A DNA stretch of 64,000 nt, taken from the NCBI GenBank assembly GCA_045837725.1, contig JBEWZL010000236.1:186001-250000 (forward strand), in the 5' to 3' direction. Position 1 is the first letter of the stretch, and each line of letters starts with the position of its first letter. Under the pieces are notes generated by a model. The model made no database searches and was not told the origin of the DNA. It saw only the letters and a program-made list of their open reading frames with translations. The translations under genes were made by a program, and so were the position numbers. Below, piece by piece: positions 9,401 to 48,271 of this stretch. The stretch comes from Vermamoeba vermiformis. Lineage: Eukaryota.

Positions 9401-10080
9401 CATTGGTGGTATTCACATTGCCTTGCTCTCCATCATATTTTTGACCTCTAACTACATTGCGGTAAGTTCTAACCTCGTGTTTGCAACTGCGACTAACCTT
9501 CAATACTAGGATACTTTCGTTCGCGGAGGAAATCACGCGGAGGATGTGTTCTTGACAGCTTTCTTTTGCTTCTTCATCTACAGTGCCACTTTCAACGCTT
9601 TCAATGTCAGGTAAGCGACGGACTGCTCTCTTCCCTTTAACAATGGGGTTGTAAATTTTGGAATACGACGGATCAACAAGCGCTCGTGGCTCAAGTGGTA
9701 GAGTGTCTGGCTACGAACCAGGAGGCTGCGGGTTCAAGTCCCGTCGGGCGCAATTTCTTTTTTGCTTTTTACTATTTTGAACCCCCGATTAACAAACCCT
9801 TCTTAGAACGCCCAGTATGAACTTGCTCGAGAATGTGCTACAAAACAGGAACTTTGTTGCTGTGGTTGGATTTATTATGTTTGTTCAATGGATCATGACT
9901 TATGTCGGTGGATCCGTGCTTCGTACAGTCCCGTTGACAGCCCACGAGTGGTTCTTCACCCTATTTTTGTCCTCTACGGTCATACCAGTAGACTTGTTCC
10001 GCAAGTACTTCGTTTTGCCAAGGATCCTGCGGAGTTTCACTTTCACAAACAGAAGACATGAAGGATTTTCAATGGTTTAA
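6435..10080 (+). CDS. P-type (P2) Ca2+-transporting ATPase, multi-exon
   Basis: GDRIPADG, VAVPEGLP, DKTGT phosphorylation site, KGAPD, MVTGD, GMTGDGINDS and QLLWVNLVMDTLAALA. Confidence 0.95.
9680..9752 (+). tRNA. tRNA-Arg(ACG), in last intron (9611-9806) of the Ca-ATPase gene
   Basis: GCGCTCG/CGGGCGC acceptor stem, TGGCTCAAGTGG A-box, anticodon loop CT-ACG-AA, GGTTCAAGTCC B-box and a downstream T-run. Confidence 0.95.
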
Positions 10081-10135
10081 ACCACACAAACACCTGTAAA
10101 TAAACTTCGCGACTATGTACATTTTTACAACAAAA

Positions 10136-11388
10136 TTACAGTCTGATAATAACAGGTTTTAAGGCTTCTTGACGCTTTCGCAACAGCTGCCCTAATGTCC
10201 TTTCGATATCAGGCGGAATTTGATGAGGCTGCCCATCCATCTACAAAAAGAATAATCAGCGCAGTTCTTTGCCAAAGCAGTACATGGAAAGCGTAACGAG
10301 CAAAAAAGAAATGGTTCCGCCCGGACTCGAACCGGGGACCTACTGCGTGTGAGGCAGACGTGATAACCAACTACACCACGAAACCTTGTTATTTTCTCAC
10401 CCCAATTTTTTGGGGTCACACCAGTTCGGCTACGTACCTGTATATTCTGCAACAAAACCATTATTTCGCGGTCTAGCTTTGATACAATCCTATAAGGCCA
10501 CTTGCGCTGTTTCACGGCATCTTTCCACCTCTTCGATAATGTACTGGTTGGTATTCCAAGTCTGTTTGCTGCGTCTTTCTGTGGCATATTGAGGTAAGGA
10601 GTGACATCGAGATATTGCTCGTTCTTCGTGTTGTTATAAAATGAGTTCGGTATCTCAGCTGAAGCTCGTGGCAGGTCCGAAGCTCTGTACCAAGTAGTCC
10701 CTCCCGAGTTGTTATTATTGTTGTTACTCTTTGTATTTGTGTTGGACGTATTTGCGCTGCTAGATGATAGACTCACAGGCTCGCTCGATGTGTTGTTTAA
10801 AAATGACAAAACTGGTGAACTATCCGCGTTGAATGAATTTGACCTGATAATCTCTTTTAGCTGGTTGTGAATATCAGCCGATGAATTGTAGTTAGCCAAT
10901 TGATGCGGTGACTCGATGAGCTCTCCGTCGTCATTTGGAATAAACGAATTGGGTTCATCCTCGCCAACGGTGAATATATGTTCATCTGTCACTGGAACGT
11001 CGTGATAAGCCGATGTGATGTCATCAATATAGCTGAGACTATTTTCATCGTCCTCTAGTCCGCTCAGTGAAGCAAAATTGTCTGACGGTTCGATGGGATC
11101 TGCCACTGGGAGCAAATTATTGTTGTTCAAAGGTGTAATTAACGTGCTGCTGACGTTTGGTATATTGTCTGTATTATCCGCGGTAATATAAGAACTGTGT
11201 CCATTCACATAATTATTGACGCCATTCGAATTCAAAGAATTGGTATGTTGGTGCGTGACTCCTAGGGCTCCTTCAGCTTCTTCTACTACCTTTCTAAGCT
11301 CCTCTTGTTGCTTAAAAAAATTCAATATGCTTTGTGGTATAATTACTTTGGTAAATGGCACGCTGTTAGAGCTGGCCAATTGCTCCAT
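10136..11388 (-). CDS. RWP-RK domain transcription factor (coding intron 10241-10437, plus a 5'-UTR intron)
   Basis: YLNMPQKDAANRLGIPTSTLSKRWKDAVKQRKWPYRIV. Last exon MDGQPHQIPPDIERTLGQLLRKRQEALKPVIIRL*. N/S-rich low-complexity N-terminus. Confidence 0.88.
10312..10385 (-). tRNA. tRNA-Val(CAC), in last intron of the RWP-RK gene
   Basis: Reverse complement GGTTTCGTGGTGTAGTTGGTTATCACGTCTGCCTCACACGCAGTAGGTCCCCGGTTCGAGTCCGGGCGGAACCA, followed by a T-run. Confidence 0.95.
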
Positions 11389-11736
11389 CTGAAAAATTAA
11401 AAATTAATTTGACATGTTAGATAAATGCAATAAATGCGTTAATTGCTTAATATGTGCCTCTAAATTGCTAGAAAATACTTCTATTGATAAAAAGAATTGT
11501 CCGATTGAAGTTTGACAAGCTTTTCGGTAGCGAACTTTGCAAAAAGCTAAAGTAGTGCCGAAAATTACCACCTACCTTGCCTGCCAAATGCCAATATGCT
11601 GACTTCTCAACCACAATAAGTTTTCTCGTGGATCTGTGGTCTTGGAGATAAAACGAATAAATTTTGCAACCAAAGGCACTCTTTTGGTCGGGCGACCTGC
11701 GAATTTGAGAAAAAAGTTAGTTTTTTATTATAAACG

Positions 11737-14700
11737 ATGGGAGACACTGCCCACATAAGTCCCGAGCAAGCTAGTCAAGTGCTTAACTTGGCAAACGTCG
11801 ACGCTAATCTGATCGGCAAGTCCTTGATAGTTAAACAATTCAAATGGTCATGACTAACCGCACAAATTATAGACATACTTGCTCGAAAAGATGTAGTTAC
11901 TTTTGGCTCGCTTGTACGAGTAGGCTTGGAGTTAATTCGGGATCCAACGTAAGTTCAGAATAACAATTTTATTTTATTACGGGCATAAGAAATTATTGAT
12001 TATTTAGTTTATTGAACTCTAATCTTTACAGATAACAATATTATGAATTTGAAAAATTTGTTAATTAATCGAGATCTCGCCAGACTAGCACAAGAGACTG
12101 CTCCCCACACTATTAAATTATCGAATAAGGCCGTCAATATTATTAAAGATTTTGCCACGAGATTTCCCAGTAAGTACCAATAATTGACACGCCCGTGCTG
12201 GCCTCTAGTCTAATATAATCGTATTACAGCCATTTTGCCGCTAATTAAAGCCGGTCAATCCTCTCCCAAAGGTCACTTCATCTTTTGTTCCGACAGCGCA
12301 GTTATATCAGCCATCACAAAGTGGCGATTTGAACAATTACCACCGAGCATTATTGTACGCACTAAATACAGCTCATACACGTCATTATTAATCAACTACT
12401 TTACTTTAATTAGCTTCGAATGCAAGCACCACCAACGCCCCCAGCTGCAAAATTTACCCAACATGCACCGAGCACGGAAAATCAAGTACAGGAAGTAACC
12501 AGCACTGAGCCCAACAGTGATGGAGTGCAGAGTCAAAAGAAGAAAAAAGCACGACGAGGCAAAAAGAAAAAAGCAATGCCGAATGCACCAGACACAAGTC
12601 AAGACAGCGAAGATACAATTACGAGTTCAGCGAACACGGCCGATGAGAGCAACAAGTCAGCGGGCAATACAAACGTGTGGTTTCACAAGAACATTGAAAA
12701 TGTCAAAAAAGCAACGCCAACCAAGGCACCGCCGAAGTTAGGCAGTTCAAAGCCAAAACAACCACCTCCCAAGGCCAACACCACCACTAACAACAACAAA
12801 GCAGCTACTTCACCTGCCACAGCCAGTCCTCAGCTGGAGTCAAAAAGTACCCCGAGTCCAGCAAAGACGAGCACCATTCGCTACTCCGACATTCTCAAAG
12901 CACCGCCACCAAAGGTACGACATCAGCGTGCAAAAACTAGTATCTAACCTTTCGTCACCAGAAATCAACTCCACCACCTCCTGCTGCTGCTCCAAAGGCC
13001 ATTGCAAAAGCTCCTAGGGCTCCTCCAAAAGAAGCCACAGCCGCTCCTCCGAAAGCGCAGCCTAAGAGAAAGAAACGCGAGCCGATATTGCTTGGCGATA
13101 TTGTCATCAAAGAGGTACGAATGAAACCGTAACACAAATGTGAGCCTAACTAGTACATTGCAGCAAGAGGCAAAGAAACTGCCTGCAGCCAAGAAGAATA
13201 TACAGCCGCCAAAGAACAAAGCCCCTCCGAGCGCAGTTCTCACGATGAACACAGCGACAGATGCGGTCATTGTCAAGCGAAGTAAGGTGCGCGAGACACC
13301 GAAGCCGAAGAAGTTTAGTCGTCTGAAGAAATTGATTCTGATTGAACGTGCTGAGAAGTGGAAGTCGCGTAATACCGCAGCACAAGCGACACAAAACATC
13401 GATAGTAATGAAGACGCTGTGAAAAGAGATGACACGAAGGAAGATAGCGAGCACGAAGATATTGATGAACTGTCGGACGAGGTACTCAGATAAGCCCGTA
13501 TCTCACTGATAGTTTAATTAACACTCGCTTGTATTCAGGACAAAGATGCAAATTCCAATGTGAACAACACGAATGTAAATAATGAAGCAGAAACAAAACC
13601 CAAAATTACCAAAGTGAAGAAAGTTCCGAACAAGTTTCTCATCAGAGAGTGAGTCGCCATCATACCTCTCGTATATCCATATTTTATTAACCACCGATTA
13701 GATATTGCGACCAAATTATCACCGATCAACTCAACAGCAAGATTATCGCGTTATTGACCAAATTGCGGGAACTACAAACTAAGATGAAACAAAGGGACGC
13801 TAAGAAAGTACGTTAGCAAGCTCGCTTCGTCGAACAGTCCTAACTTTGTACAGGCTGCAATGAAAAGACGATTTGTAGTCGGACTGCGAGAGGTGGCGCG
13901 AAGTGTCAAAGTGTCACAAGTCAAGCTGATCATCTTAGCCCCAGACATCGAAGAAAGTAGTGCCCCAGGTACGCATACTGAGCCTATTTATCTCCGAAAC
14001 TAATTCCTCCGCAGAAAGTCTTGATGACCGCGTTGCGGAGATTCTTGAAGGAGCACGTGAGATGAGTGTCTTGTGCGTGTTTGGACTAAATAGGAAGAAA
14101 CTTGGAGCAGCGTTGGGCTTCAAATTGCGTATGAGCGTCGTTGGTCTATCGTATATAGATGGTAAGGATTGCTTACGTCGCTTACAGCTGTTGACATGTG
14201 TTGCAGGTGCCAATGAGCTGTACAATGATCTCGTGGAGTGTGCCGTCAAGAGCCGCATTCTGTTTGCCTTGCAACGAAAAGTACTCGAGCGCCAGGCTGA
14301 ATTACGAGGAACTGAATTAATTGTACCGAAATTCGAAGCTACAGGTCATCGAGATGAAGGTAAGGACAACACGGGACTAGATCTGGATGCACAATTGTTA
14401 ACTAGCAATACAGACACTCAAAAATCGAAGAACAAAATCCTGTTTACGATGGCAAAGTACAAAAATGAAGAGAAGCTGCCTGACTATCAAAAGTTCACCA
14501 CCGACAAGCTGGTAGATCTGTTACACGACGGACGATCGAAGCAAAAGAACAGCTTGACTCTGTTCGTGCAAGACCTTGATAAGAACAAAATACACCTTTT
14601 TGAAGAATTATCGCCAGCTACCAAAGTCATTGAGCTGAAAGTAAGCCATAACCGCCGGATATCCGAATCCCAATCTCTTCTCAATTCGGAATATTTCATT

Positions 14701-14890
14701 TTAGGAACAACTTCTGCTGCGCACTGCTACTGCAAAAAAACTCCTTCCAGAAATGCAACTAAAATTCCACGACCTGGTGCTTGGTGCGGAGTTGGATGAA
14801 GTGCCCATCAGCGAATTGCCTAGTTTAGAAAATTATTCGACAATTACTGTTCAAAAAAATGCCCTATCTTTAATCAAGATTGTTTTGTAA
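11737..14890 (+). CDS. SECISBP2: SECIS-binding protein 2 (L7Ae domain) with a C-terminal ubiquitin-like extension, multi-exon
   Basis: K-rich KKFSRLKKLILIER, IREYCDQII, KRRFVVGLREV, IILAPDIE...LDD and VFGLNRKKLG...SVVG...GANELY match SBP2. The first intron has a GC donor. Confidence 0.85.
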
Positions 14891-15413
14891 ATAATAAATG
14901 TAAATACTCCGAGGTGACGCGACGATCGTCCAAACGGTCTGAAACTGCTTCAAACCCTCGCAACAATCAGGAGACACGCGATATTGTAGCTCCCATGCAC
15001 TGGGATATTTAACAGCACGCTCTCGTCAGTAAGGGCAGCATTGTAGCTCGAATTGCAATTGAATCTGCGTAATGGAGAGATTGCGCGCGTACACAACAAT
15101 AAAAAATAACAGATGAAATTCTTATCGAAAAGCCCCACGATTGGTCAATCGGTTTTGTTTTTGTTTTTATATGTATCTTTCTCGACTGCACATAAAAATG
15201 ATAAAAATTTGGAGCTCTCTGATTGGTCGGCTGGAAAAGATAAAATCCAAAATTGGCGTTTCATCTCTTTTTTCTACATTGTTTTTTTTTCGTAACGTGG
15301 TGAAGCAAGCCTACCCCAAGTTCTTCCACCTTGGTAGTTCAGAGCTCCTCGCCGCAACACAAGAAAAAACTTTTGCTATTTTAGCAAGCCTTTAGAAACT
15401 TCGGTTTCGTCGT

Positions 15414-15479
15414 ATGCACTTTAACTTCCACTCTACTTTCACTTTCCTTGCAAATCCGGGTGACCGAGGGTATTCCTGA
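15414..15479 (+). promoter_or_regulatory. 21-codon uORF (MHFNFHSTFTFLANPGDRGYS*) in the AdoMetDC leader, ending TCC-TGA
   Basis: ATG at 15414 is in frame with TGA at 15477-15479, 17 nt before the main start. AdoMetDC mRNAs are commonly uORF-regulated. Confidence 0.65.
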
Positions 15480-15496
15480 CATCTCTAACTACGTGA

Positions 15497-16634
15497 ATGT
15501 AAGTATTCTCAAATTTGGCGCGAATGCCAGCGAAGCATCTGAATCAAATCCCAAAACAGAAAAATTAATTGCCATTAATTAAATAGGTCGGCTATCCAAG
15601 ATTTCCTCCTTGATACTGGTGTTAACCTTCCCCCAGCACAAGAGTGCTTTGGTTTTGAAGGCGTCGAAAAGAAGCTCGAAATCGACTTCAAGAAGATTAA
15701 AAACAACAAGCTTGGCTTGCGCGTCATTCCTCGCGCTTGCTGGGAAGAAGTACTCGATATTGTCAAATGCAAAATCCTCAACATGACCAAGAACGCGTAC
15801 TTCGATGCTTATGTCTTATCCGAATCTAGCTTGTTTGTCTATCCATACAAAGTCATGCTCAAGACTTGCGGCACAACTGTTACCCTTCGCTGCCTTGACA
15901 GACTCATGGAAATTGTGAAGGAGCACGTTCCCGAGACCTCTATCGAATTCTGCTTCTTCAGTCGACGCAATCTTCTCTTCCCCGATCGACAGATCTTCCC
16001 TCACACTAGCTTCGAAGACGAAGTTGGCTACTTGAACAAAGCTTTTGGTACTGATGGAGAGGCCTACGTCTTTGGCCCCAACAACGCTCATCAATGGCAC
16101 TTGTACTTTGTCGACTACAGCGACAAGACCGAGATCACAGACGACGTGACTTTGGAGATTATGATGACTGACCTTGACCGCACTGTCATGGAACAGTTCT
16201 ACAAATCTGCCGAAGATATTTCTGCTAAAGAAATCACTCGTTCTGCCGGTATCTCGAATCTGATCCCTGGTCAAGTCACTGACGAGTACATGTTCGACCC
16301 CTGTGGCTATTCGATGAACGGTTTGTTTGGTGATGTCTACTCCACCATTCACATCACTCCTGAGGCTCACTGCTCATTCGTCTCGTTCGAAACCAACATC
16401 AAGGCTGCTGATTACACCAAGGTCCTCAACGATGTAATTGCTGCCTTCAAGCCTGGAAGATTCACCGTATCTCTCTTTGCCGACAGCGGCGCTCTCTGTG
16501 GTCCTTCAACCTTCAATGCTTTCAACCGCGAAGTTGGCGGTTTTACTTGCAAATCCAATGCCTACCACGAGTTCGAAGGACAATACAACGTTACGGTTAG
16601 CAACTATGTTGCCCGTGACTTTATTGGCGCTTAA
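15497..16634 (+). CDS. AMD1: S-adenosylmethionine decarboxylase proenzyme; start codon split AT|G by intron 15499-15586
   Basis: FEGVEKKLEIDF, the YVLSESSLFV autocleavage site, LKTCGTT, FDPCGYSMNG and TIHITPE. The only in-frame start is made by splicing. Confidence 0.95.
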
Positions 16635-16857
16635 ATACAACAAGCGCACACACTAGTGACCAATGCTCTTTGATTGGTCACTGCCGCTGTTTGCCCCCGT
16701 GACAGCTAATTAGTTTGCAATCAATTTATGTAAAGCACCCTCTCACCTCACAACAACAACTTGTAAATACTACTTGCTTAAGAGTGGACGATGTTCACTA
16801 ATGTTAATAAAGAAGTGCTTGCGAAATCAAATCCGCTTCGTGAAACCTTTCATTGGT

Positions 16858-17584
16858 TTATTTAGTGGCTGGTGTGCCGGTAGTACGAGGAGTTTTAAAG
16901 TAAGCAACAGCAGGCGTGTATGTGTATTCCATGAGCTTAGTAACTCCGTGATCGATAGGCTTGTAGATGATGGGAATGGCGACCAAACCGCTGGATGTGG
17001 TGTCAGTCGAAGTTTGACGACAAAGTTTGCTGCTTACCTGAGTGTGGATGCCCATCGCTGCGCTAATGGTGACAAGGTGCTGCGTTGCAGAGCTTTAGCA
17101 GTGAAGTGACAAGTGCGATTAATAAAGAACGGAGGAACGACAACGCTCGCCAACAATTGCCATAGCGCCGTTTCGCCCGCTTTTTCAAAATTAAATTTTC
17201 CCTAACGAGTGCAAAGCGGGTTAGCGATTGGTTGTGTTGAAATGCAGGAGGGAAATTAAATTAATATTTTCAGTTGCAGATCTCGCGGTAATTATTTGTA
17301 TAATGGGATTTTATTCGGAAAATCTCACTAAAATGTTCAATAAAAAAATTACCTGATTATTTACACTCGCTTTCTTTCCTTTATCAACGGTGTCAGCTGC
17401 AGCGTAGCCGATCGCCACTAAATATGTGGAAATAACTACTGAACGAGGAATGACTGGTCTAAATGCTTCACCGACTTCATTTGCGTAGCCTAAAAAGCGC
17501 ATCCAACCGTCTGCATCGAAGTTCAGAATTCAGCTGCCACAGCAAGTTTGTTGAAGTTACCTTTGAACGGATCGTGCTCGACAT
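16858..17584 (-). CDS. MTFP1: Mitochondrial fission process protein MTP18
   Basis: RFLGYANEVGEAFRP, WQLLASVVVPPFFINRTC and GLVAIPIIYKPID. Confidence 0.88.
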
Positions 17585-17768
17585 TTGTAGCTTTGTGTTC
17601 GCTCATTTTGTTATGTTTATATTCTATTGCTCTGTATTGGCAAGTTTTAAGAATAAATTTCGCGTTTCAATTTAATTTACCCGTAAGAAACTCACCGTTA
17701 ATAGGAATGAGTTTATTATGTACATTTATGGGATAAGTAGTGATGCCGCAACGATAGGATATTACCCT

Positions 17769-19285: not shown

Positions 19286-19669
19286 TGCGTTCGTTCGTTG
19301 CAAAATAAAAAACTGGATGCAACCCAAGTTCATTGATGGCCTTTAACGCCCGGAGTTTCAACACCTATCAGTTAATAGTAGCAGCAAGTCCATGAGTAAT
19401 ACCAATGACAAGTACCACTACAGAGTATAGTTGCTGGGATAAAGAGGCAAAGCAGATCTGGGTGGTACGACAGTGTAGTTCTAATTAAATATTTAGCAGG
19501 TTTATTAACACGATTATATTTACATATTAAACATTGGTTTCGCGAGCTCAAAATTTCCTCTTCACTTCTTCTCGTATTGTTCATCATTAATTGCGAGTGC
19601 CAGTCGACAATGAAACTCTGATCAATTCAATCAAACTCTTCAAATCCAGATCTAGCGACGGTGGGGAAG

Positions 19670-31454: not shown

Positions 31455-34124
31455 ATGCAATGCAAATAAGAAATTGCGTGCCGTTGTTGATTGCTCTGTT
31501 AGCGATCGGCATTTGCTTCCAACAGCAAGGTAAGTTGAACTTTTACAATTTAATTATTTAATTAAAAACCGTGATCCTCAATACGAGCGAGTTGCGAATA
31601 CAGATCTGAATAATTACGGAAATTATTAATTATTTATTTAAAATTAACGCACGCTGCTTTTAGGTTTTGTAAATGGACAAAAACTTGATGAATGGGCTAT
31701 AGAATTTGATAATGAAGTTGATTCTATTGCTTTTGCCGAACGCTACGGGCTGATCCATGAAGGCCAGATCGGACCCCTAAAAAACACTTATTTATTTTCG
31801 AAACCAACGTCCACGAAAAGATCTGAAGACTCAGGCTTTGAGTCGAGGCATCGGAGATTTTTGGACATGTTGGAATTACCACAAACGTTGCAGCATCCGA
31901 AAAGATCCCTCACTTCGATAGAGAGTGCAACTGATGAAGAGATTCGCAGCGAAATTAAATGGTTCGAGCAACAAGAGTTAAAACAAAGGAGTAAGAGATC
32001 AATAAGAGAAGATCCAACATTCACGGTCCCGCCAACGGATCCGCTCTATCCCAAACAATGGCACTTGAGCGGCAACAAAACAAACAATCAAGTCGACATT
32101 AATGTACTCGGTGCTTGGAAGTTGGGTACGACAATAGCACAATAATTATAACTGATAACGTATTGACTCATACGCGCAGGTTACACGGGCAAAGGAGTCA
32201 CGATTGCCATTGTGGATGACGGCATTGACCAAGATCACCCTGACATTAAGCCTAATTTCAAACAAGAGGGCTCGTACAACTTCAATACAAACTCTAACAA
32301 CACCAGGCCCGTCAACTTGGGTGCACACGGAGTAAGTTTTGTCAAAACTGAAAATTATGCTAGATATAGCTAATACTAACTGTTACTTCTCAGGACTGGC
32401 ACGGCACAACAAGTGCAGGTGTTGCAGCAGCGCGTGATGACGGACAAGTGTGCGGAGTTGGAGTGGCTCCAAGAGCCAGTTTATCAGCCGTTGTGATCTT
32501 GCAAAGTGGTTCGGTGTCCGACGCCGTGGAAGCACGTGCAATTACACACGCACTGGAAGTGAATGATATTTATAGCAACAGTTGGGGACCAGTCGATGAT
32601 GGCAGACGAAAAGAGGCCCCTGGTCCCCTCACTCAAAAAGCATTCGAGCACGCACTCAAAAAGGGAAGAAACGGCCTCGGGTATGTTGTACTCACATCTG
32701 CGTGGCACCTCAATAATAATATAATGTAGCACGATCTATGTCTGGGCAGCAGGCAATGGCCGCAGGAATTCAGATGAGTGCAATTACGATGGCTACGCAA
32801 ACTGGCGTGGCACGGTGTTGATCGGCGCTGTATCGTGGAAAGGATCGTCAGTGTGGTACTCAGAGTCCTGTGCTGCACTTTTAGGTGTCACACCGAGCTC
32901 GGGTGATGCAGCTAGGAAAGATCCGGACATTGTAACAACTGATCTGAGAAACGGAGGACTTGAAAATGTAAGCACGACCAATACATGCACCAAGACAAGA
33001 TACTAACCAAAACAGGGCCTATGCACGAGCAAATTCACTGGCACATCCGCTTCGTGCCCAATGGCCGCAGGTATCGTTGCACTGATGTTAGAGGCCAATC
33101 CAAAGCTCTCGTGGCTAGACGTGCAGTACATTCTGGTTGAAAGCTGTGTCCGCACCGAGTTGGATGATCCAGATTGGAAACAAAACGGTGCTGGCCGCTG
33201 GGTGAACCACAAGTTTGGGTTTGGACTGATTGACACTACGCGCGCAGTAGAATTGAGTGTGAAGCACAAAGATAATATCAAAGAAGAAAGTAGATCCTTC
33301 CAATCACTAGAAATGAAGACTTGGGACGCGTAAGTTTAAAAACCACCTAAACCTTTCGTGCTCACCATTCGCAGCCAAACACCAGAAGTCAGTGCAACAA
33401 TTATGGTGCCCAATGATTCGTTAGAGTTGCATCACGTTGAAATTCGGGTCAACATCACGCATCGCATGCGAGGAAAACTGAGTATCGTGCTAACAGCTCC
33501 TTCGGGTTTGAGTAAGTAGAAAAACAAGGGTTACAAGGGCGAGGCGTTTGGCCCCCTTTCGCCACAAAATCCTAAACTCGCGAAAACCGCGAACAAGTTG
33601 CCCTTATAGCTCAGTTGGCAGAGCGCTAGTCTCGTAAACTAGAGGTCTTGGGTTCGATTCCCAGTGAGGGCAGTTTTTTTTTTTGCTTTTGGGTTACTTA
33701 CTTTTTATTTCAGCAAGCATCTTAGCTAATCAACACAGCGATGGAGGTGCTGACTACAATGCTTGGCGATTCACCTCATTGCGCCATTGGGGAGAAGACA
33801 TCACGGTTAGTTTTTTTTTTTAGTTAATTCCTGTGATGTGATCTGACTCATGTACCACAGGGAAATTGGACCATATACATACGAGATTCAGGACAACTCA
33901 GTGGCGAGTTCAAAGACTGGAGCCTGAATTTTTACGGCATTCCTCGCACGCCCAGCGCTCCTCAAGTCGATCCCACTACTGTCATCAATGACGACAGCGG
34001 CATTTACAGCTATCTCACTACGATGTCAATATTCCTCGTGTGCGTAATGGCTGGCTTAATGTACGTCTATTATCGAAAGCGAAAGGCTCGCTACGATCCA
34101 TCTGGCGTTGTAAATATTTTGTAA
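31455..34124 (+). CDS. Kexin/furin-like proprotein convertase (S8 domain, P domain, TM)
   Basis: Signal peptide, RSKR propeptide site, IAIVDDG, HGTTSAG, YVWAAGNG, FTGTSASCP, HKFGFG, RHWGE and a C-terminal TM helix. Confidence 0.93.
33600..33672 (+). tRNA. tRNA-Thr(CGT), in penultimate intron (33512-33713) of the kexin gene
   Basis: GCCCTTA/TGAGGGC acceptor stem, anticodon arm CTAGT-CT-CGT-AA-ACTAG, GGTTCGATTCC and a long T-run terminator. Confidence 0.95.
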
Positions 34125-34268
34125 AAATAAAACAGCAAAGCACATGCACGTGTATCATATTAAAACATTAGATTTTAGTTGTTGATACAAAAGAAAATAA
34201 GATTTGATCTGTCAGTCGTGCTTGAAACGAGATCAAAAAAGTTACCGTTGCGGTGACTAAGAACGGTC

Positions 34269-35492: not shown

Positions 35493-38400
35493 TCAATTCA
35501 GATCAGGCCTCGGGGACGCATCTAAGCTCAAAGCCATCAGCTCCTTTTGCGAAGCTTTTTTCTCCATGCCATCCGTTGCTGAGGTCGTCAAGAGGCTCTT
35601 TGATCGCGATCGCTCGGGAGACGTAGAAGTAGCATTGGTATTGGTGTTCGCACTCGACGACGAAGAGAACAGGCTCGAGTCCTGACTGTGCGGCATGCCG
35701 TCATCGAGCTTAGTTGTCGGGGATATCACGGTACTGCCTATTCGCTTTTGAACGATTGCGTTGTTCAACTCGAACGAGTCCGAGTCTGACTCTGAATCGT
35801 AGTGCGGGATTTCATGGTCGTTGTCGATCAGTTCTTGGTTCAACTTGCCCAACACGTCATCGAGCTTCGGCACCAACGGCTCGTTAGGGAAGTAACTCTG
35901 CAAGAACAGTCAATAATGCGTCCTTTGTAGTGTATATTATAGAGCTCAAGAGGTACCTTTAGACGAGGCAAACTATGTCCGATGAAGTAATGCACACGCG
36001 CCATCTCTCGGCCAAAGTTGATGCTCGTGTTGGCCGGGATCTGATCGGGAGGAATCGTCGGGTGTGTGCAGAGATCATCAATAAAGACCTTCATATCCTT
36101 CATATTGTCCGTAATGAACTGATTCATCTCGTGCATGAACGGTTCTTTCGCGCCAAAGCTGCACAAGTTGCCCAAGTTTTGAAGTGTCTTCGTAATCAAC
36201 GTCATTTCGCGTGAAATTGCAGCAGGTGGGTGGTCTATTCGAGAGAACTATTAGTTATTGCGTAATTACGCTTACAAAGCACGTACCATTTACAAGTCCG
36301 AAGGCCTTCAAGTTGAGCAAGGCAGGGCAGAAAAATCGCAAAAAGATGAAGCCGCTGGGACCGATGTAAGGCGCAATATCATCGTTGGGGAACTTCTTTT
36401 TGAGCTCGTTTTGAATGTGCTCGAAGATATTTCTGAAACTCCTATTGAGAATAAGAACGAACATCAGTTTCAGCTCAGATGATACGTATAGCAGTAAATT
36501 CATTATTTTAGTATAGTGCATCATCTCTGGTGCCAGAGAAGCTTTCGTCTTCACAAATTTCAGACGGTAATTCCATTTTTATCATCTGCATCAGTAGCAT
36601 AGGATTGCGGTTGGTGTTGAGTACTTACATGGGGCAGATATTCAACGAGGTCCTAATAGCATCGAAGATTTGTTGGCAGTATGTTTGTAACGTTTGTTTG
36701 TTCTTTTTTAAGATTTTTTCCGGATCTTTTTGATCTACTCTTTGCGGATCCATCTAAGCATACCAGTGTTAATGAAATCATATATACGTCCTTATAATCG
36801 ATATCTAGGACTCACCTCGCAAGATTTCTTGCCAATATTTGCGTAAATTTCGGCAACGATTGGCTTCAGCACTCGTTGCAAGTACGGCATGCCCGTCAGT
36901 CGCATGTAAATATCCAACGACTTGGTGCCGACAGTATTGCCTCTGAAAATGATCTTCGAGTCCAATGTGCGCTGAATTTCATCGCTGATAATTGATTTCA
37001 AGAAATGCACGGCTGTTTTTCTCGTTTCAAATGACTTGACCAAACAATCAGCCACACGGCGCTCTTTCTTCGTACTGATCGTTGAAAACAACTTTGTAAG
37101 CTTCATATCTTCTTCTAATAGTAGCGATAATAGATTATCATAGGACGTGTCGGGCAAAATAGTTGATGACTAAGCGATGAAAAAAAACGGAGTAATTAGT
37201 ACACGATAATTTTGCCATATTAGGAAATGAGCGATATTGATAACCTCGCTCGTAATGATAGTTCATTACAACGCTTATCAAGAATAATTAAAGTCATTAA
37301 AGTGTATTATTATTTTGGAACTTACGCTGAACTGCAAGGTCAATCGGACTTCACCAATTGATTTCTCGCGCGACGGACTTAATTTCCACCATTTGCCTTT
37401 GACTTTGGTCGGGTCATCGAGCTCTTTCAATAATATTTCAACTTCGCCCAATATCATTTCATCCGAGCTCTGCATAATTGTGCTCGCATCGCATATTCGA
37501 ATGGTGATTGTGTTATTGTATTCAGGTACGTCGCTATATATAAATATCTATGTTAGCGCATCAAGAAAAATTGCAATTTTCTAAATTAGGAAATAATAAG
37601 CTAATTTTGAGTATTTTAAAAAAAGCCGCGCATAATCTTACAATTGACATTCAGCGCCGGTGTAGGTCGGAGAAGTTCCGCGCGTAGGTTGAGAGCGCAC
37701 TGTTTTGGACTTAAATACGACGGAAGCATACGTGTCCGTTTCACTGGCAAGATCTCGCGCTTGTACACCTTGATTTTGAATCATCAGTATTAGAAAGAAA
37801 ATAATCGTTCTATCAACTCATAAAGCATATAAATGTGATCTATAGTAGGCTGTTATAATAAATATGCTATTTTGCAATCATTAAAATGACGAGCGGGTTC
37901 TTACCATTGATTTTTATGCAGCCAATGACATTTTTGTTGGGGACTGGTGGCGTGTATAAAATATCTAGTGAAATTTCTCCTTTCACTGAATCTTCTTCAG
38001 CTGGAACAAGCGCGTACCAACCGTCTTTTGGTCGACCGTCGGTTAGATCTGGCATCGGAATCGATACTTTGCCTACAATATTTTCTTTTTTCTTTCTATC
38101 ATCTTCTTTGAGCATAACAATCAATTCTTTAGCATCTTCTTCGATATCCCTATTTAATAGAGTCCATTTAATATTAATATTTGAATTCACACCGGACACA
38201 AAAAGTTTTTTGTAACACAATAACAATCGCATTGACGTGCAGCGAAATCTTTAAGATATATTTAGCGCATATGTGTATTTGTATCGCGACTATTCTTAGT
38301 GGTAGGTATTGCAGATCTAGGTCAACACTTACAGATCAAATTCTTGCATAAAACCGGGTTGCTTAGTCTCCCATATAGTCATCGTCCTAGCCTTTTGAAC

Positions 38401-39275: not shown

Positions 39276-40055
39276 CTTGATCTCGGATCCCAAGCCAACT
39301 AATTCTACAGAACCGATTCGTGCACGAGTATCAGTATTTACTTGAGCAGTGTGTCGTTCAGTTTCACACTCAATCAGACAATGCTCGTGTAATTCAGTTC
39401 GGTGCGCACAAAGAAAATGGTCCCGAAATGTGGAAGGGACCAGAGGCCGTCAAAAAATCACCAGAAATTTACTGGAACTAGACGATTCACAATGGACAAC
39501 ACTCGCGTGACGGTTAATCGAATACTGGCTTGGAAGTAAAGAGGCACAGCAGGATCTCCTCCAACGGATGGATGGTGCTTTTTCTCGCTCCCTCCATTGA
39601 ACAAAATTTATCGCCAAATTGCTCTGAACTTTCCTCCAAAATTGCGGCGTATTTTTGTATTAGGTATGGTGGAAATGTAATCATGTTACGAAAGCAAATC
39701 CCAAAGTCGTTCTGGATTCGTTCGTTGAAACGACAATAGCACGTGCTTCAATCCTAGAATTCTTTACACACATTAACACATGGTTCTAACACAGCTCATT
39801 CTCAATATGGCTCGTGTCGTAGTCGTAAACCTTGATTCTGCTCCAGATCTGGCTTCCTTGTGGTTTATACTACTACATTCCGATGGAAATTGTGCGTCAA
39901 ACTTGCGCATAGATTGATATGATGCACTATTATAATAAATGGCTTGTGGTGAGTTCAATTCTTGTTGGACACGTGCTTTTGGGGCTTTGATTTAATGTTT
40001 AAATAGATGAGATAAACTCAGTTTTAAACCACTCCGAAACGCGACCACACACAGT

Positions 40056-43016
40056 ATGGAGAGCTATTTTGCAACTCTGCCGCTCGAAGTAGTGGTGGAT
40101 TTGTTATCGGTTCTCGACAAACGGTCAGTTGCACAGTTTGCCAGCGTTTCAAAAAATCAGAAATATTATTTTGAAAAGCAAGATGGTCTTTGGAAGCAAT
40201 TAGTATGCAAATTATTTCGCTGGGGAAGCAAAGGTAAATTTAAAATTAGATGTGTCAAGAAATCGAAAAATCCTCAGACTGTTACAAAAATCTAACCTTG
40301 ATCTTAGAGCTAAGTAAAGTTCAAAAAGGAAGCAAAATTGACTGGGCAAAGGAATATCGAGTATCAGCGTATTATAACGAAAAAATTCGAAACAACCAAA
40401 TTTACGCTGATCCAACCCAAACTCAATTCAAATATTTCTCAGTAGTTGATGAAGCTACAAAGCACTATCGATTTGACGATAAAGATATTGAAGATACTCA
40501 GGGTATACCTTTTTTCTACTTTGTAAGTCAACGCCGTCTTTTTTCTGCATGCACTCGTAGTAATTGTAATTGCTGCTAGAATATTCAAAGCAAAATACCT
40601 CTGTATCCATTGCCGATAGGAAATTTTAGCGTGGCTTATTACGAAGTCGAGAACATTGATAGTGATCCTTCTTTGTAAGTCTTTTTTCCTTTATCCTGCA
40701 TCATGTTAATAATTAAATAGGAGCGGCTACCTTTATGTAGGCGGGGCTTTGGATGGATTCGTTAATGGCCTGCCTGGCGTCGGAAGAAATTCGTACAGTT
40801 ATTGCGTGTACGACGGTCGGATCGTTCTTGAAGACGACTTTGGAATGAGTACTGTACCTGAATGCACGAGTGGCGATGTCGGTATGATTGCTTATATGAG
40901 TAATGAAGAAATTAAACAACGTCTAACGACTTTTTTTAGCTGGATTCGGCATTGACTTCAGTACGAACTCTATTTTCTTTACCAAAAATGGTAAAATTGT
41001 CGCCGAGGCCACAAAGACCTCAACAGGGACTCCGTTACTCAATTTAAAGAGCCTGCATGCCACGATTGGTTTCTGTGCAACGAAAGAATGCAAAGTTAAT
41101 CTCGGGGCAGATCCGTTCAAATTCGACGTTCTGAAATATCAACAAGAAAAAGCCAAAACGAAGCTATATTCGGTCACTAAGTTCTATTCTGACATTCGTA
41201 CGTACCATAACATTACCACATTCCCAAATTAGGCAATCGAAATTTAATCCTAAATTCTTTTTAGTACGAGAGCACTTGACGGCATTCAGTGAATCAGAAA
41301 CCAGTGCCTTAGTCAACGAGTTGTCGGTGACATATGCACCCATGGACTATAATCTTCCCCCAGCCGGTGCTCGTCTCAATTCATTCTTGTACATGCTGCT
41401 CTACATGCGCATCCCGCCGAACTACGTGCCACCGAGTGATTTTGACGTGCAAGTGAACGGCTTGCCAAACGCTCTCACAGCAATGGCTCATTGCCGCGCA
41501 ATTACTCATGCGAACTCGTTGTTGCCGTCGTAAGATCATATAATCCGGATCGAATTATTGGATCTAACTTAATATGTAGGCTTGAGAATAGTTTAGCACG
41601 ATCAATCATTGACTATATGGCTAGAAGTTTGGAAGTGGTAAATAATAGAGCTTAACAATTTAAATTTTTACGATCCGCTAACTAGTTACTACCTACCAAT
41701 CGCAGGAGCAAAAAGAGATGCCATATGAAGATTATTGCCAGGAAATTATGTACAAAGCGATGGGGACTCTTGGTGCTATATTTCAAATATTGGTAGCCGC
41801 TTCTGTGGACGATTTGGTGAAAGATTTTGGTTGCGTAAGTTGAAATTTACATTTCAATCGTGTTGGTACCAAAAAAAGATAATTAATTTCTATTTTATTA
41901 TATTTAATAAGGCCTTCGGCTTACTGTTTTGAACTTATTACTAAACATGGTAATTCCATAGTTCCACTCGTATCTTGCGTTGAGTTATGTTTTGCTGGGT
42001 AAGTGTCTTACATTTGACGACAGCGTAGAATAACAATGTATACTAATGTTAATTATTTAAATAAGGTGGTTGGGAAAATAACCACTACCTCCCTCAAATG
42101 GCTGCGAGGGCATTTTATCAACATAAGGATCCGCTCTTAAAAAACAACAACCAAGAACTGACTATGGAACAGTTGCAAGAGGCGTACAGCGTGGCTATTC
42201 ATAAAATTATATAGTACGTTATTAGTTAGCGATAATACCAAATTCTAAATGATTTTTTTTCTAGCCTTAGGCGTACTGCAATTATAATAAGCGCTGCAGA
42301 AAAGATGAGACTCAAATTTATACCACAAAGAAAAGGAGAAAAAGCGGAGGCAATGGTAAGTTCAATTGGATCTAATTGTATTTAATGTACGCCTTATACT
42401 AATAAAGTTATAGCGAGTTTACGGCAACGACAAGATCTTAGAGAGTTTGTTCGATTCGTCCGTCAAACGAATGGCTAATTTAGAAGTCAATACGTACAGT
42501 CCACCACGAAGTAGTGTTATTCTGACGCTAATAGCCGAGGCTAAGTCAGGAAACACCAATCAATTGATTACATATGGCGTTTACGCATTCAGATTGCCCG
42601 TCAATAATTTCGCAACGAAAGCAGCCTTGGCCGCGGAGATTTTGCAACGATTGAACGAATTAGTGACGGATGAAATGAAACGAGAATTCTTGGAAGATAC
42701 TTTGAAAATGTTGTTAGATCCGTCTACGATTGATGAAAGCGCGCTGGCCAAAAGTCTTGAAGTGGCGCAAGTGATCTTCGGCTACCAACTGAAAATGAAA
42801 AAGAACGTGCAAGAGCTGTTGCAAGAGACTGAAGAGTTTTTGCGCGACAAAGTGAAGAAATATGAACGGAAAATCAAGAAAAAACAGCGCGAGACTGCCT
42901 TGGCCACCGCACAGAGCAACACTTCGTCAAGAAACATACTCATTGGTGCTAGCCTTGCAATGGCTGCTGCAGTGTTTGTATCGGCCTTGATTTATATGAG
43001 GAAAAAGACGAAATAA
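40056..43016 (+). CDS. F-box + SPRY domain protein with C-terminal TM anchor (assumed to be one gene)
   Basis: F-box FATLPLEVVVDLL...ASVSK; SPRY motifs YYEVE, LPGVGRNSYSY..DG, FFTKNG and VNLGADPFKFD; coiled coil plus TM helix at the end. Confidence 0.7.
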
Positions 43017-43326
43017 GACAATAATAAAATACGGCTGGAACCAACCAACTCCAGATCTCGATTGTATCTTGTCTAATAGCAGCTACTACGTGCTTAATAC
43101 TACATTAATATGATAATGGCCTGGTAGATAATCAAGAATAACTTGGTGTTTTGTCGCGGGATCCGATCTACGTTACTAACTCCGGGTATTAAATACTGAA
43201 GTTCTTATACCCTTCTTTGGTAAGTGCAACCCTAATATTTTGAGACTTTGAGTCGACATGTCGGTTCACAAATAAACAATCACAAAGTTCGACATTTATT
43301 TACATGAGTTTGACACTTTACGACCG

Positions 43327-44069
43327 TTACACTTTGGTGCTAATCGTCGTATCCGTGTTAAACTTGGTCTTGCTAGCGAGGTATGTGTTCCACACTAATG
43401 ATACGCAGTTTAAGTACAATAGTCGGAAGTGCAGCGGAACGACGTAAAAGTTGACCATTTGAGCTGCGGGCCATAATTTCAATGAGTTCTTATAAATATT
43501 GACGTAGTTATCTTGTAAGTTCTTCTTAATATCATCGCTATTCTTGCCGGCTATTAGCCCTCTATAAACGAAGAAACAGCCGATAAAAAATGGCGAGATT
43601 GTAGTCTGATCTATAACTACTTTTCCAATCAAGTTACCGAGCTGTCCTAGCTTTGTTTGTCGTTTAGGGAATATCTTTTCCAAGAATCTGAACCAATTAT
43701 GCGAGATTGGAGCGAGGAAAGCGAATCCGTACGCTCCCATGGCGAGGGATCTGAACACAAAAAACATTAAAACTTGAATCATTCGCGTAATAACATAGTA
43801 ATTAATATATTTAATTTATGAGAAGGATTATTAGATGTTTTATAAGCAGATCAAGCTTGAAAAACCGGATGCCGGTTAATAAAATCACAAAAATTGGACA
43901 GAATTTAATTAACTTACCGACTGTAGTCCCATGGGCCTTCTTTTTGAATATATTGCGCAAGGGCATCGCCCGAAAATAAAATAATGCTTGAGGTGATAGC
44001 TTTGGTTCGGATCGGGATGGTGAGAAGCGCTCTTTGGTACGCGTCCCACGCTGAGCGCATAGCAAGCAT
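43327..44069 (-). CDS. Mpv17/PMP22 family membrane protein
   Basis: TKAITS...GDALAQ, KVVIDQ and LWPAAQMVNFYVVPLHFR...WNTYL. Confidence 0.92.
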
Positions 44070-44415
44070 TTTTGGCGTTAATGTAAATATGTAGTGGTGT
44101 ACTACCGCATAGGAATAAAAATTTAATGATAACGGCCCGTATTTATCATGTAACTCACTCCGCAGCACGTGACTCGAAATTTCAGGTCCGACAACAGCGT
44201 CAAACTTGGTTAATATTCCCAGTCATTACAATTCAGGTAATTGCTGCGGGCTAGCTACGGGCACGGGCCGCTTTCGAACAACAAATCTAGCGCTGAACAC
44301 GCCGTAGTACTAACTCTCGATATACCTATCTCACCAAGCATAGAATCGTGTATAATATAATATAACAATTGGCGCCGTGGTCATCTACATGCAGCTTTTA
44401 CTAAATGTGTGCATT

Positions 44416-45929
44416 TTAATACGTGGCTGCGAGCAGTCTGTCCAAGTACTCTTTCGCATTGATGGGCTCGTACTGCGCTGGATTTTGAATCGCTTTTGCA
44501 GCTGTCAAAACACTCCACTACAGTCATAGGATCGTTAGTTAGTTAAGCATTGGACTACTATAGGTCTTATCGTCTTAAAACTCGTACCTGACACGTTATC
44601 ATCGGGATGAACGAATAGTGCAATGCTATTATCGATTATATATGTAGTGAAGTAATGCTAGTGTTTGTTTTGCTCTTTACCTGAACCGCTCTTTAGACCA
44701 GATCTCACCTTGCTCATTCTTGGGTTCCGGTGAATCTACCACACGATGTCTCGTTGATAGCAGGACATTGTTACTCCATCTCATGAGCTATAATATAATG
44801 TATACATTAGTCTAATACACGTGGATATTTGATTGCTTGTCAGGCCGTACCAGATCTCCAGTATTCACCAAGCAAACACTCGTCCCTAACGGCTCTACAT
44901 CGAACCAATCCTGTCTATTTCTCAATTGTACTTGCAATCCTCCCGCATTATCTTGCCACAGCAGTGTAATACTGCCATAGTCTGTGTGTGCTCCTGCTCG
45001 AAGTTCTGCATCTACAAGAAAAATAGTTGAGTCACGTGATAAGTGGCATTAAATAGCACTATCATACTTGGATTATTAGGGTTTAATTTCCTTCGCGGGT
45101 ATTTTAATAGTCGCAGCGTTGTAGCATTTTCATCACCAATTGAATTTTGATCGAAAAAATTAGGCTCCAATTTTAACGCCTGTACGATATTATTAGTGAC
45201 TTAAAATAGGATATCATATTTCCCATACCATAGCATAGGCTTGTAACACTACTAATGCGGCTTTTCGTGATCGTTGAAAAAAGCTAAATTCAGACGTCAG
45301 ATCCGTTCGAACTGACAAATCGATAGTTTACCTTTCCATTGTCGGTCTCATATCTTTAACGCTATCGATTGACTCAGGTAGCCATACATTGTCTGTTGCA
45401 AGCATATTAAATGCTTCTTTTGGATCTCCCGTCGGATTTGTAACGGGATCGAGCTTTTCTCCTTTCATCTTTACATAGCCTCTATTTGACTCTGTCCATG
45501 GTATTGTTGATTTAACTTCGTCAGGAAGGGCGAAAAATCGCTTTGATAAGTCGAATATGGTGGCTAGCTCTTGTTCGCTAAACAATTAGCGAGATCAGCG
45601 AAAAGTTGCAGAACCAAGAACAATTAGAATTCAATTACCTGACACCTATATTTTTTGCATAGAGAAATCCCACGGTTGTGCAAGCATGAAATACTTGCTG
45701 GACGACTTTTGAACGTTGATCCGCGTCCGAATTTTCTATCCAAAAATGGTAATTAATTAAATGTGAAATTTTTACAATAATCCGCGTATTTTATACGGGT
45801 TAATATCTATAATTAAATTCGATGGTGATTTATTGAAGTTTGGAAACGACTAATAAATTTTGCTTGCATACCAGACAAAAACGGGGTAAAATCGATAACA
45901 GGAATGCTAATTGACTGCGCCATAGTCAT
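44416..45929 (-). CDS. 2-oxoglutarate/Fe(II) dioxygenase (IPNS/DIOX_N family), multi-exon
   Basis: IPVIDF, TVGFLY, NRGY, GDPKEAF, RAGAHTDYGSITLLWQD, VNTGDL..RWSN...STRHRV and AKEYL. Confidence 0.9.
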
Positions 45930-46045
45930 AAATATTATATGGTTTCAAAATTGCCGCGCGTTCTGTGGGACTTCTAATTTTAATGAAACGCAAATGACCA
46001 TTTTGAGATTTTTTTGCCTTGAAGACCTCACAAGAATCTAACAAT

Positions 46046-48271
46046 ATGTTTGACGTTATTATCGTGGGCGCTGGTGTATCTGGTAAGTCTGTGCATTCTT
46101 GAAATACGTATTGAAATACTGAAACAACGCGATCCTCTTTATTCGATCGGATCTTGAGTACGAATATTAGAGCTAATAATTGCCAATTAAATAGGCCTGT
46201 ACACTGCCAAATTATTGCAAGACGAATATAAGTTAAAAGTATTAGTCGTTGAAGCGTCAGATCGTGTTGGAGGTAGAGTTAGACAGGTAAGCTTATTTAG
46301 CGGATTTCTTTCGTCAAAATTATATAAAAATATTTAATACACGGAAATGACCCGTAGAATACCCATTGCATCGTTCACATTTTATTTCACGAATCCAATC
46401 TAAAATCATGAAAATCAGAATTTGATCAACAATTAGCGCAATTATTGCTTAACTACCTCTTAATAAATAGGAAACTGGATTCGTTAGTTGGCCTATTGAT
46501 GTTGGTGCTGAAATTGTTCACGGCAAAGACGTCTTGCTCTATAAAATTGCCAAACAAAACGGCTGGGAAATGAAACGCGTGCGTAAAAATTACAAAGCTA
46601 GTATTTATGTGCTAATTGAGATTTAGATTTTCGATTCTTTGCCTCGCTTGGACGGCACGCCTTTCACAGGTCGCGAGTGGTGGTACCTCGGACGTGAACG
46701 CAAGTTCTTGCCTTATCCGACCACTGAGCCTGATGTGCGCAAAGCTTTTGAACTCATTCGACGCGGATCTGACGGTGGTGTGAAAGCTAACGACGGGTCA
46801 TTGATGAAGGTGAGCACGTGACTTTGATGATCTTAGGTTCAGTTAACTAATTATGGTAATAGTTCATGGTCGACAACGGAGTTTCATGGCGAGCTCTCCC
46901 ACTTGTGGACGCACTTTACGGCAAAATTTGGGCCACGGACATCGACAAGTTGGGTGCTAAAGTACGTGCACATAACGCGTTGAAATATTTTATTAACGGG
47001 ACTGAATAGGAAACATTGACTGAAGAACACAAAGAGAACTCTGACGTTGAAGACAATTACAAGGTTATTAAGTCATTTTCCGTTTTGTTGGATTTCTTGA
47101 AGAAGGATCTGGAGATCAAGACAAACTGGAGGGTACGTTGTACTGACTCAAACATGGAACGCAATCTAATTCACACTTTATATAGGCTACATCAGTCACA
47201 TATCAAGGAGACGTCATTAAAATTAAGAATGATCGTGGCGAGGAGTTATTGAGCAGACGCGCAGTCATTAGTGTGCCGGTCAATATTTTGCGCGATGGAG
47301 ATATTAAATTCACTCCCGAGCTTCCTAAAGAGAAGGTGCTTGCCTCACAGAAGGTTGGCATGGGCATGGCTCTGAAAGTCATTTTGAAGTTCTCTCAATT
47401 GCCATTCTGGCCCAAAGATATGCAACTGTGCATTTGTTCTGAATCGATCTTCCCACAAATTTGGCTCGAGGTAAGCTACCTAAGCATGAAAGCTAGTTTA
47501 GACTTGAGTATTAAATTGTACTCGTAGGGAGGACCAAGCCGTGGCTTAAATGCTCCTTACATTGTCGTTGCCTTTGTGTCTGGCGATGCTGCAAAGAATA
47601 TTCAAAGTATGCCCGATAAGTTGGTAGTGGACAGTTTCTTGAAGCAATTAGACACCATGTTCGGCAACGAGCAAGACAGCAACCCTGCTACACGCCACTA
47701 CTTGGACTACTTCATCTTTGATTGGGCCAAGATGCCGTTTGTGCGTGCTGGATACAGCTATCCTGCCACTGGAAGCCTCGGCCAACGCGCTGTCCTAGCA
47801 AAGGCAAGTAACTGGACTCGATTTTTTTCTGGGCAATCTGTTGCGTTTTGAAGCAGCCATCACAATTTTGATTGTCGCGGGGATCCCACAAACATTGAAC
47901 AGGCCTCCGAGCCCAAGGGGTCGTGTTTTCCTAGAATTCGAAAATCAAGCAAGGTTCCGTAGCTCAGCGGCAGAGCGGATGACTGCAGATCATCAGGTCA
48001 CCGGTTCAAATCCGGTCGGAACCTTTTCTTTTTACTTTTTTGTTGTTACCACTCTTGTTTGGGGCCCCAAACAGCTATCCCAAGCAGCTTTTTATTCAAC
48101 GATGATCGCTAATATCTTTTTTAGTCTGTACAAAATAAGTTGTTCTTCTGCGGTGAAGGAACTGGAGATGAGGAATCTGGAACCGTGAATGCTGCTCTCG
48201 AGACGAGTGTTCGTGCTGCTAACGAAGTTGCCGTATCATTGTCAAAACCCAAGCTCAAGAGCAAGTTGTAA
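46046..48271 (+). CDS. Flavin-dependent amine oxidase (polyamine oxidase-like) with C-terminal SKL peroxisomal signal
   Basis: DVIIVGAGVSG, EASDRVGGR, DVGAEIVHG, RAGYSY, LFFCGEG and a ...KSKL* ending. Confidence 0.88.
47953..48024 (+). tRNA. tRNA-Cys(GCA), in last (GC-AG) intron 47804-48124 of the amine oxidase gene
   Basis: GGTTCCG/CGGAACC acceptor stem, anticodon arm GATGA-CT-GCA-GA-TCATC, GGTTCAAATCC and a T-run. Confidence 0.95.

Follow-up and report, generated by a model that had tools for sequence, protein, structure and literature searches.

Here, we show that all four transfer RNA (tRNA) genes found in a 64,000-nucleotide (nt) stretch of the genome of Vermamoeba vermiformis (assembly GCA_045837725.1, contig JBEWZL010000236.1, positions 186,001 to 250,000 of the forward strand; the whole stretch is called the window) sit inside introns that belong to protein-coding genes, on the strand of the host and close to its 3' end. 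The hosts appear to encode a P-type Ca-ATPase, an RWP-RK protein, a kexin-like proprotein convertase and a flavin amine oxidase. The interpretation that we consider fairly probable, with considerable reservation, is that these are four ordinary tRNA genes of RNA polymerase III (Pol III), lying in sense in near-3' introns that are read through by RNA polymerase II (Pol II) and spliced out, and that their nesting results from genome compaction. As a rule tRNA genes are regarded as stand-alone Pol III units, with a position that matters mainly for the neighbouring chromatin. Nested tRNA genes are already known, and what may be new is the regularity, i.e. sense orientation in the 3'-most introns of a genome with introns of about 50 nt. 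Our literature search, which was made without the organism name and is weak evidence of absence, revealed no rule of sense-oriented tRNA genes in 3' introns for any protist or fungus.

The DNA of the window is eukaryotic and compact; its G+C content is about 41%, its GT..AG introns are short and their branch sites resemble CTAAC. It was searched with ARAGORN, with and without tRNA introns allowed, and with Rfam, both at the gathering score and at E≤1. Throughout the 64 kilobases exactly four tRNA genes (Arg-ACG, Val-CAC, Thr-CGT and Cys-GCA) were detected. All are canonical and of cytosolic type with cloverleaf and A/B boxes; they are called by ARAGORN and reach 62-70 bits with the Rfam family RF00005, the gathering score being 29:

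9680 to 9752, + strand: tRNA-Arg(ACG), ARAGORN and Rfam (63.5 bits)
10312 to 10385, - strand: tRNA-Val(CAC), ARAGORN and Rfam (62.4 bits)
33599 to 33673, + strand: tRNA-Thr(CGT), ARAGORN and Rfam (69.9 bits)
47952 to 48025, + strand: tRNA-Cys(GCA), ARAGORN and Rfam (70.1 bits)

No further tRNA was found in the window by ARAGORN with introns allowed or by Rfam at E≤1, where the extra matches comprised two sub-threshold non-tRNA elements, a possible small nucleolar RNA (snoRNA) and a viral cis-element. Seven ARAGORN calls obtained at a lowered threshold, with “introns” of 58-2781 nt, were discarded as noise. The initial annotation had described four tRNA genes in sense within 3'-end introns of protein genes and no intergenic one; the former is confirmed for each of them and the latter is borne out within the window by the agreement of both programs.

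In all four cases the strand of the tRNA is that of its host; the host intron is the last one for three tRNAs and the penultimate one for tRNA-Thr. Four sequence runs could be placed on the region 8800-11400, namely X1, which is guessed to be RNA, and X21 to X23. X1, homologue alignments and protein profiles were used for the following host genes (with the span of their coding sequence, CDS) and host introns:

6435 to 10080, + strand: P-type Ca-ATPase host, CDS span, 12 exons, stop codon TAA; model corrected by homologue alignment
9611 to 9806, + strand: host intron of tRNA-Arg, last (11th), 196 nt, GTAAGC..TAG; X1 joint and homologue alignment
10136 to 11388, - strand: RWP-RK host, modelled CDS span, exon 2 at 10240-10136, stop codon TAA; gene model
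10241 to 10437, - strand: host intron of tRNA-Val, the only modelled intron, 197 nt, GTACGT..TAG; homology only
31664 to 34124, + strand: kexin/proprotein-convertase-like host, supported part of the CDS with uncertain 5' exons, stop codon TAA; Peptidase_S8 and P_proprotein
33512 to 33713, + strand: host intron of tRNA-Thr, penultimate, 202 nt, GTAAGT..CAG; Pfam collinearity and translation of the junction
46046 to 48271, + strand: flavin amine-oxidase host, CDS span, stop codon TAA; Pfam and gene model
47804 to 48124, + strand: host intron of tRNA-Cys, last (8th), 321 nt, GCAAGT..TAG; Pfam spacing and frame check

The three larger hosts contain 23 tRNA-free introns of 45-184 nt (median 53 nt, 1561 nt in total). 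The size contrast drawn in the initial annotation holds insofar as the tRNA introns measure 196-321 nt and most others 40-90 nt; it has to be restricted in that four of the 23 are longer (105, 112, 147 and 184 nt), the other 19 having at most 73 nt.

Among the four host introns the spliced joint was seen for that of tRNA-Arg, in one X1 contig (depth 14.6, shorter side 28 letters) that passes from 9608 to 9805 and skips 196 nt. Contigs of X1 skip four neighbouring GT..AG introns of the ATPase gene as well (49, 52, 45 and 48 nt), and the depth of 14.6 at the Arg-intron joint compares with 9.9 at the neighbouring joints. In the bin centred on tRNA-Arg (9670-9756) the X1 depth is 0, and the exon-bearing bins on both sides are covered. 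The spliced ATPase aligns unbroken over the junction (FNAFNVR/TPSMNL, the slash marking the joint) with all six homologues tested, the closest having 63% identity, and reading through the intron leads to stop codons. The last exon corresponds to positions 113-175 of the 175 of Pfam Cation_ATPase_C. A GC-AG intron at 10001-10052 suggested by exon chaining is spurious and was overridden by homology. Apart from the tRNA, the same gene contains a 51-nt intron at 7953-8003 (+ strand, GTACGT..CAG) that is stop-free and in frame and would insert 17 residues absent from the homologues; it represents a trap for annotation based on open reading frames. The nearest named proteins of the Ca-ATPase (6435-10080) are amoebozoan (45-48% identity), with those of Cyclobacteriaceae nearly as near (45-47%), and by these matches the taxonomic distribution of the family is unusual.

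For tRNA-Cys the Amino_oxidase profile is matched at positions 332-397 before the intron and at 411-442 of 443 after it. The sole in-frame junction with the right spacing uses the donor GCAAGT and therefore the intron is of the GC-AG type. A rival model with a micro-exon at 47903-47922 fits the spacing of the profile worse and was rejected. Structure searches with single exons gave weak matches (E 0.0015 and 0.18), and the Pfam positions are clearer. In the kexin gene three successive 3'-most exons match positions 2-27, 32-60 and 62-86 of the P_proprotein profile (86 positions), and the joined reading is in frame (...APSGLTSILANQHSDGG...). Exon chaining favoured an acceptor 12 nt further, at 33725, by which the nesting of tRNA-Thr is unaffected.

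The predicted intron around tRNA-Val is the most weakly supported of the four, its support being homology across the junction only. X1 has no cover on 10105-10452, i.e. no RNA lies over this intron. From the RWP-RK domain to the tRNA there is no in-frame stop, and with the frame thus open the tRNA could be either coding or intronic. Splicing yields a last exon of 34 codons, and the spliced protein aligns to its last residue with both homologues (ALKPVIIRL versus CLRPVKIRI and CLQPVHIRI), the E-values being 3.6e-17 and 1.6e-16 for the spliced form versus 1.3e-15 and 8e-14 for the form read through. The codon score is uninformative (-0.34 bits per codon in the last exon, -0.49 in the main exon). 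Another donor proposed by exon chaining was overridden on homology. The Pfam RWP-RK match itself (24.8 bits) is under the cut-off of 29.3, and the two homologues (P0001 and P0002) carry PF02042. The ATPase and RWP-RK genes are convergent: their stop codons (10078-10138) are 55 nt apart, and tRNA-Arg and tRNA-Val face each other at a distance of 560 nt. Reads from a related organism (see below) show a poly(A) tail past about position 10125. Given this site and the 55-nt gap, the 3' untranslated regions (UTRs) of both genes must overlap or abut.

The second line of evidence concerns the Pol III signals, which are accompanied by tracts of at least four G or C (G4/C4):

9758 to 9763, + strand: run of six T (T6), 6 nt past tRNA-Arg, Pol III terminator-like; run scan
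10302 to 10307, - strand: T6 run, 5 nt past tRNA-Val; run scan
33674 to 33684, + strand: T11 run directly after tRNA-Thr; run scan
48029 to 48041, + strand: T5 run and then T6 run, from 4 nt past tRNA-Cys; run scan
9645-9650, 9780-9786, 10400-10415, 33552-33556, 47879-47887, 47917-47920 and 48059-48070: G4/C4 tracts beside the tRNAs, several of them palindromic

Every tRNA is followed, at no more than 6 nt from its 3' end, by the start of a run of at least five T (T5-T11). By comparison, a run lies that near at just 3.7% of the positions of the 23 tRNA-free introns, and at 3.1-3.2% of those of the window as a whole. As the four tRNAs are different and unrelated isoacceptors their T runs can be counted as independent, and the chance of finding all four is (0.037)^4 or about 2e-6. 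The A and B boxes fit the consensus in each tRNA, and the motif CAA(C/G)A closes each 5' flank, including that of the relative described below. Also the position of the oligo-T runs upstream of branch point and acceptor, stated in the initial annotation together with the A/B boxes, proved right in all four introns. The T11 run of tRNA-Thr opens the 40 nt leading to the acceptor and the runs of tRNA-Cys lie about 80-95 nt before it; owing to these differing distances they can be assigned to the tRNAs and not to the splice sites. Since tRNAs derived purely from introns would need no terminator, the presence of terminators together with consensus boxes and the CAA motif argues for autonomous Pol III genes and, judged by these sequence signals, the four tRNAs are probably transcribed by Pol III.

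The whole window has 96 G4/C4 runs, of which 11 fall within the 620 nt of tRNA-intron flanks; the 1561 nt of tRNA-free introns contain none. One such tract occurs about 27 to 47 nt upstream of the 5' end of each of the four tRNAs, and the only palindromes of the types CCCCAA..TTGGGG and TTGGGG..CCCCAA in the window lie in the Val and Cys introns (0.01 expected of each). No G4/C4 tract was found in the 5' flank of tRNA-Arg in the relative. A trailer motif common to the tRNAs (T run, GCT, 3-8 nt, TTAC) was considered and rejected, as it is exact at tRNA-Thr only and is matched in 15 of 100 shuffles. In minimum-free-energy folds of the whole host introns the tRNA cloverleaf was not recovered.

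A third line of evidence comes from a metagenome contig (L001) encoding an ATPase with 85% amino-acid identity, the only close one among the 14 metagenome loci of the ATPase scan (the others are 21-40% identical). Its ATPase exons are 76-86% identical in DNA and its introns are located at the same places. After the same last donor codon it carries an identical tRNA-Arg(ACG) (73 of 73 nt), at which the contig ends. The 5' flank of this tRNA comprises 47 nt in L001 versus 69 nt in the window, with only the terminal TCAACAA being alignable. An identical tRNA in the same intron despite diverged exons means that the pairing of tRNA-Arg with the ATPase intron predates the divergence of L001. A tRNA scan of the loci L001 to L006 found none outside L001. 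For the kexin and amine-oxidase loci no close relatives were detected: the 80 loci retained from GTDB are all titled as bacterial or archaeal, and even the best of them reach 58-61% identity along only a section of the query; a viral scan for relatives of both loci found none.

The runs X21, X22 and X23 contribute 22, 11 and 15 reads on 8800-11400, all of which align only partially, mostly with 95-99% similarity. Their label names the same species; they come from a diverged relative and are uninformative on splicing in the window. In these reads tRNA-Arg differs by G>A at 9682 and C>T at 9749. Both changes affect the same acceptor-stem pair, turning G-C into A-U, and are thus compensatory.

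According to the interpretation given at the beginning each tRNA would be transcribed by Pol III via its own A/B boxes, CAA-type start region and oligo-T terminator. Pol II would read across this unit, and splicing would remove the enlarged intron (about 200-320 nt versus a median of 53 nt) in the normal way. The nesting would be explained most simply as an effect of genome compaction, in which introns serve as non-coding slots able to take about 150 nt more and the spacers, with a length much like that of introns, are occupied by promoters or by 3' ends that overlap. Sense orientation and 3' position would then originate, as we infer, from selection against interference of Pol III with the host promoter or 5' region and against head-on encounters of polymerases. 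The initial annotation had proposed Pol III units in introns or tRNAs processed from excised introns, possibly coupled to host splicing or 3'-end formation. Of this proposal, Pol III units in introns fit the T runs, the boxes and the CAA motif; for the coupling to splicing or 3'-end formation no evidence was found in our data.

Several points weigh against ordinary Pol III genes nested by compaction. Sense orientation in all four cases would be demanded by a Pol II-dependent route, too. The gene for tRNA-Cys lies only about 340 nt before the apparent ATG of the next gene, which fits poorly with simple avoidance of promoters, and the compaction argument is built on three local spacers. Furthermore, nine reads of X21 leave the body of tRNA-Arg, cross the conserved trailer and continue into dissimilar sequence, the loose part having a median of 61 letters, and RNA-seq reads of X21 to X23 carry 72-99 loose letters upstream of this tRNA. 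Longer RNAs containing tRNA-Arg could thus exist in the related organism, and precursor messenger RNA (pre-mRNA), carry-over of genomic DNA or read-through by Pol III would look alike.

A rather unlikely explanation, albeit one with several arguments on its side, is that there is no special organisation: the tolerated sites would be mostly introns, and the sense, 3' pattern would be a small-sample coincidence picked post hoc. The 1561 nt in 23 introns contrast with apparent spacers of 55 nt between the ATPase and RWP-RK genes, about 145 nt past kexin and about 90 nt past the amine oxidase (neighbouring genes as read). Introns make up roughly four fifths of the non-coding DNA in this neighbourhood, and the chance that four of four tRNA genes are intronic is about 0.4. 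As introns dominate the local non-coding DNA and the spacers are tiny, the intronic location alone is near chance. A similar situation is known from Caenorhabditis elegans, where 44-47% of the tRNA genes are intronic, corresponding to the chance level (44% of 609 genes, p = 0.566 versus chance), and 56% of these are in sense (Sagi et al. 2016, PMC4999229). Sense orientation in four of four cases amounts to a mere p = 0.0625, and the cases are not fully independent because Arg and Val share one convergent junction.

This coincidence has to be set against the position within the hosts. If all introns are equally likely, the observed ranks have a chance of 1/11 x 1/8 x 2/7 or about 0.003, where kexin is taken with at least seven introns and the RWP-RK gene with its single intron is uninformative. 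Measured along the CDS span, the midpoints of all four tRNAs fall between 0.80 and 0.90 (0.2^4 = 0.0016). Orientation and position together give a nominal value of about 1e-4, all these figures being post hoc and based on n = 4. Also the maintenance of the same tRNA-intron pair in L001, whose exons differ at 14-24% of bases, argues against coincidence. Sense orientation and 3' position look non-random, in a suggestive way.

To the same extent doubtful is the far-reaching proposal that this lineage follows a conserved rule by which most of its tRNA genes occupy the 3'-most introns in sense, with functional coupling between the Pol III units and their Pol II hosts. Such a coupling could mean that host transcription licenses or supplements tRNA output, that bound TFIIIB/TFIIIC acts as a roadblock to read-through from closely packed convergent neighbours, or that the G4/C4 palindromes aid Pol III factors or the splicing of oversized introns. 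If the rule were true, it would provide a natural system for studying how Pol II passes a bound Pol III complex and whether tRNA supply can be tied to host transcription or splicing, and it would reveal how the placement of non-coding genes is altered by extreme compaction. A merely local pattern would represent a tidy, ordinary case of nested tRNA genes.

Quite improbable in our opinion is a Pol II-dependent biogenesis, in which the tRNAs are cut by RNase P and RNase Z from the host pre-mRNA or from the excised intron and their supply is tied to host transcription. The sense orientation that it needs is seen in all four cases, at n = 4 a weak bias. The reads of the related organism, derived from complementary DNA, pass the T run and reach far upstream of tRNA-Arg. 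The location in terminal or penultimate introns resembles that of the tRNA-like RNA of GUT15 in Arabidopsis (PMC6152437), and the tRNA-Sec of Trypanosoma brucei is made by Pol II, with its authors floating this idea for intron-encoded tRNAs (PMC2943599). Nevertheless, autonomous transcription by Pol III is not possible for the GUT15 RNA (PMC6152437), in contrast with the consensus boxes and terminators of all four tRNAs here. With boxes and T runs intact, a Pol III incompetence of the GUT15 type is not apparent from the sequences. Moreover, cleavage before splicing would sever the last exon, and the depth at the ATPase joint is like that at its neighbours. As a supplement to Pol III transcription an intron-derived route could exist. 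An origin from mobile elements like short interspersed nuclear elements (SINE) or miniature inverted-repeat transposable elements (MITE) was rejected: the isoacceptors are different, the flanks share short motifs only, and target-site duplications around the tRNA units are not significant. In this last test 20, 101, 300 and 274 of 300 shuffles did as well as the best direct repeats that the final 30 nt of the 5' flank share with the 3' flank.

As in C. elegans (PMC4999229), Pol III tRNA genes reside in introns of protein genes and tRNA-host pairs can be conserved, here Arg/ATPase between the window and L001; in that nematode the host promoter can influence the expression of the intronic tRNA, which may be one way of coupling both. 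In contrast with the 56% sense orientation there, and with no preference for 3' introns mentioned in the accessible parts of that paper, all four tRNAs here are in sense and lie in the last 10-20% of hosts whose usual introns have about 50 nt. In Arabidopsis sense tRNAs are found in introns or UTRs of 19 protein genes, reverse transcription polymerase chain reaction on three of them revealed efficient splicing of the tRNA introns, and in a reporter a canonical intronic tRNA left the host splicing pattern unchanged (PMC6152437). Common to both organisms are the sense nesting and, with GUT15, the use of a final intron. The differences are that GUT15 RNA is Pol II-dependent, whereas the four genes here look Pol III-competent, and that nesting concerns a small minority of the Arabidopsis tRNA genes. 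The tRNA-Sec of T. brucei is similarly a sense tRNA inside a Pol II unit, which means that Pol II transcribes across it (PMC2943599); it is, however, part of a polycistron and its Pol II dependence is experimental, whereas here spliceosomal introns known from the sequence are concerned. Human nuclear intronic mitochondrial-derived tRNAs (nimtRNAs) are also cloverleaf-forming sequences in introns, which alter host splicing by their structure and position (PMC7722341). They are mitochondrial-derived look-alikes in either orientation, in contrast with the genuine cytosolic-type tRNAs with Pol III signals described here.

Elsewhere in the window an eRF1-like gene (3078-4163, - strand) has 45-49% identity to named eukaryotic eRF1s, which is low for this protein; the close relatives, with 86-92% identity, come exclusively from metagenome or assembly data. 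All four host genes end in TAA and no in-frame TAG or TGA was seen in the ATPase model; these observations give no sign of a changed genetic code, for which no dedicated test was made.

Intronic snoRNAs are typically situated in sense in enlarged host introns, lack their own promoter and terminator and are released by trimming of the spliced intron. The tRNA genes presented here are like them small RNA genes in sense within enlarged introns, and unlike them carry Pol III promoter and terminator signals. At 36513-36600 (- strand) Rfam gives a match below the threshold with snoR77Y, a C/D-box snoRNA (33.9 bits versus a gathering score of 52, E 0.015); it lies in sense in an apparent intron (GTAAGT...AATAG, about 185 nt) belonging to a gene on the - strand. 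This locus may represent a second kind of small RNA gene in an enlarged intron.

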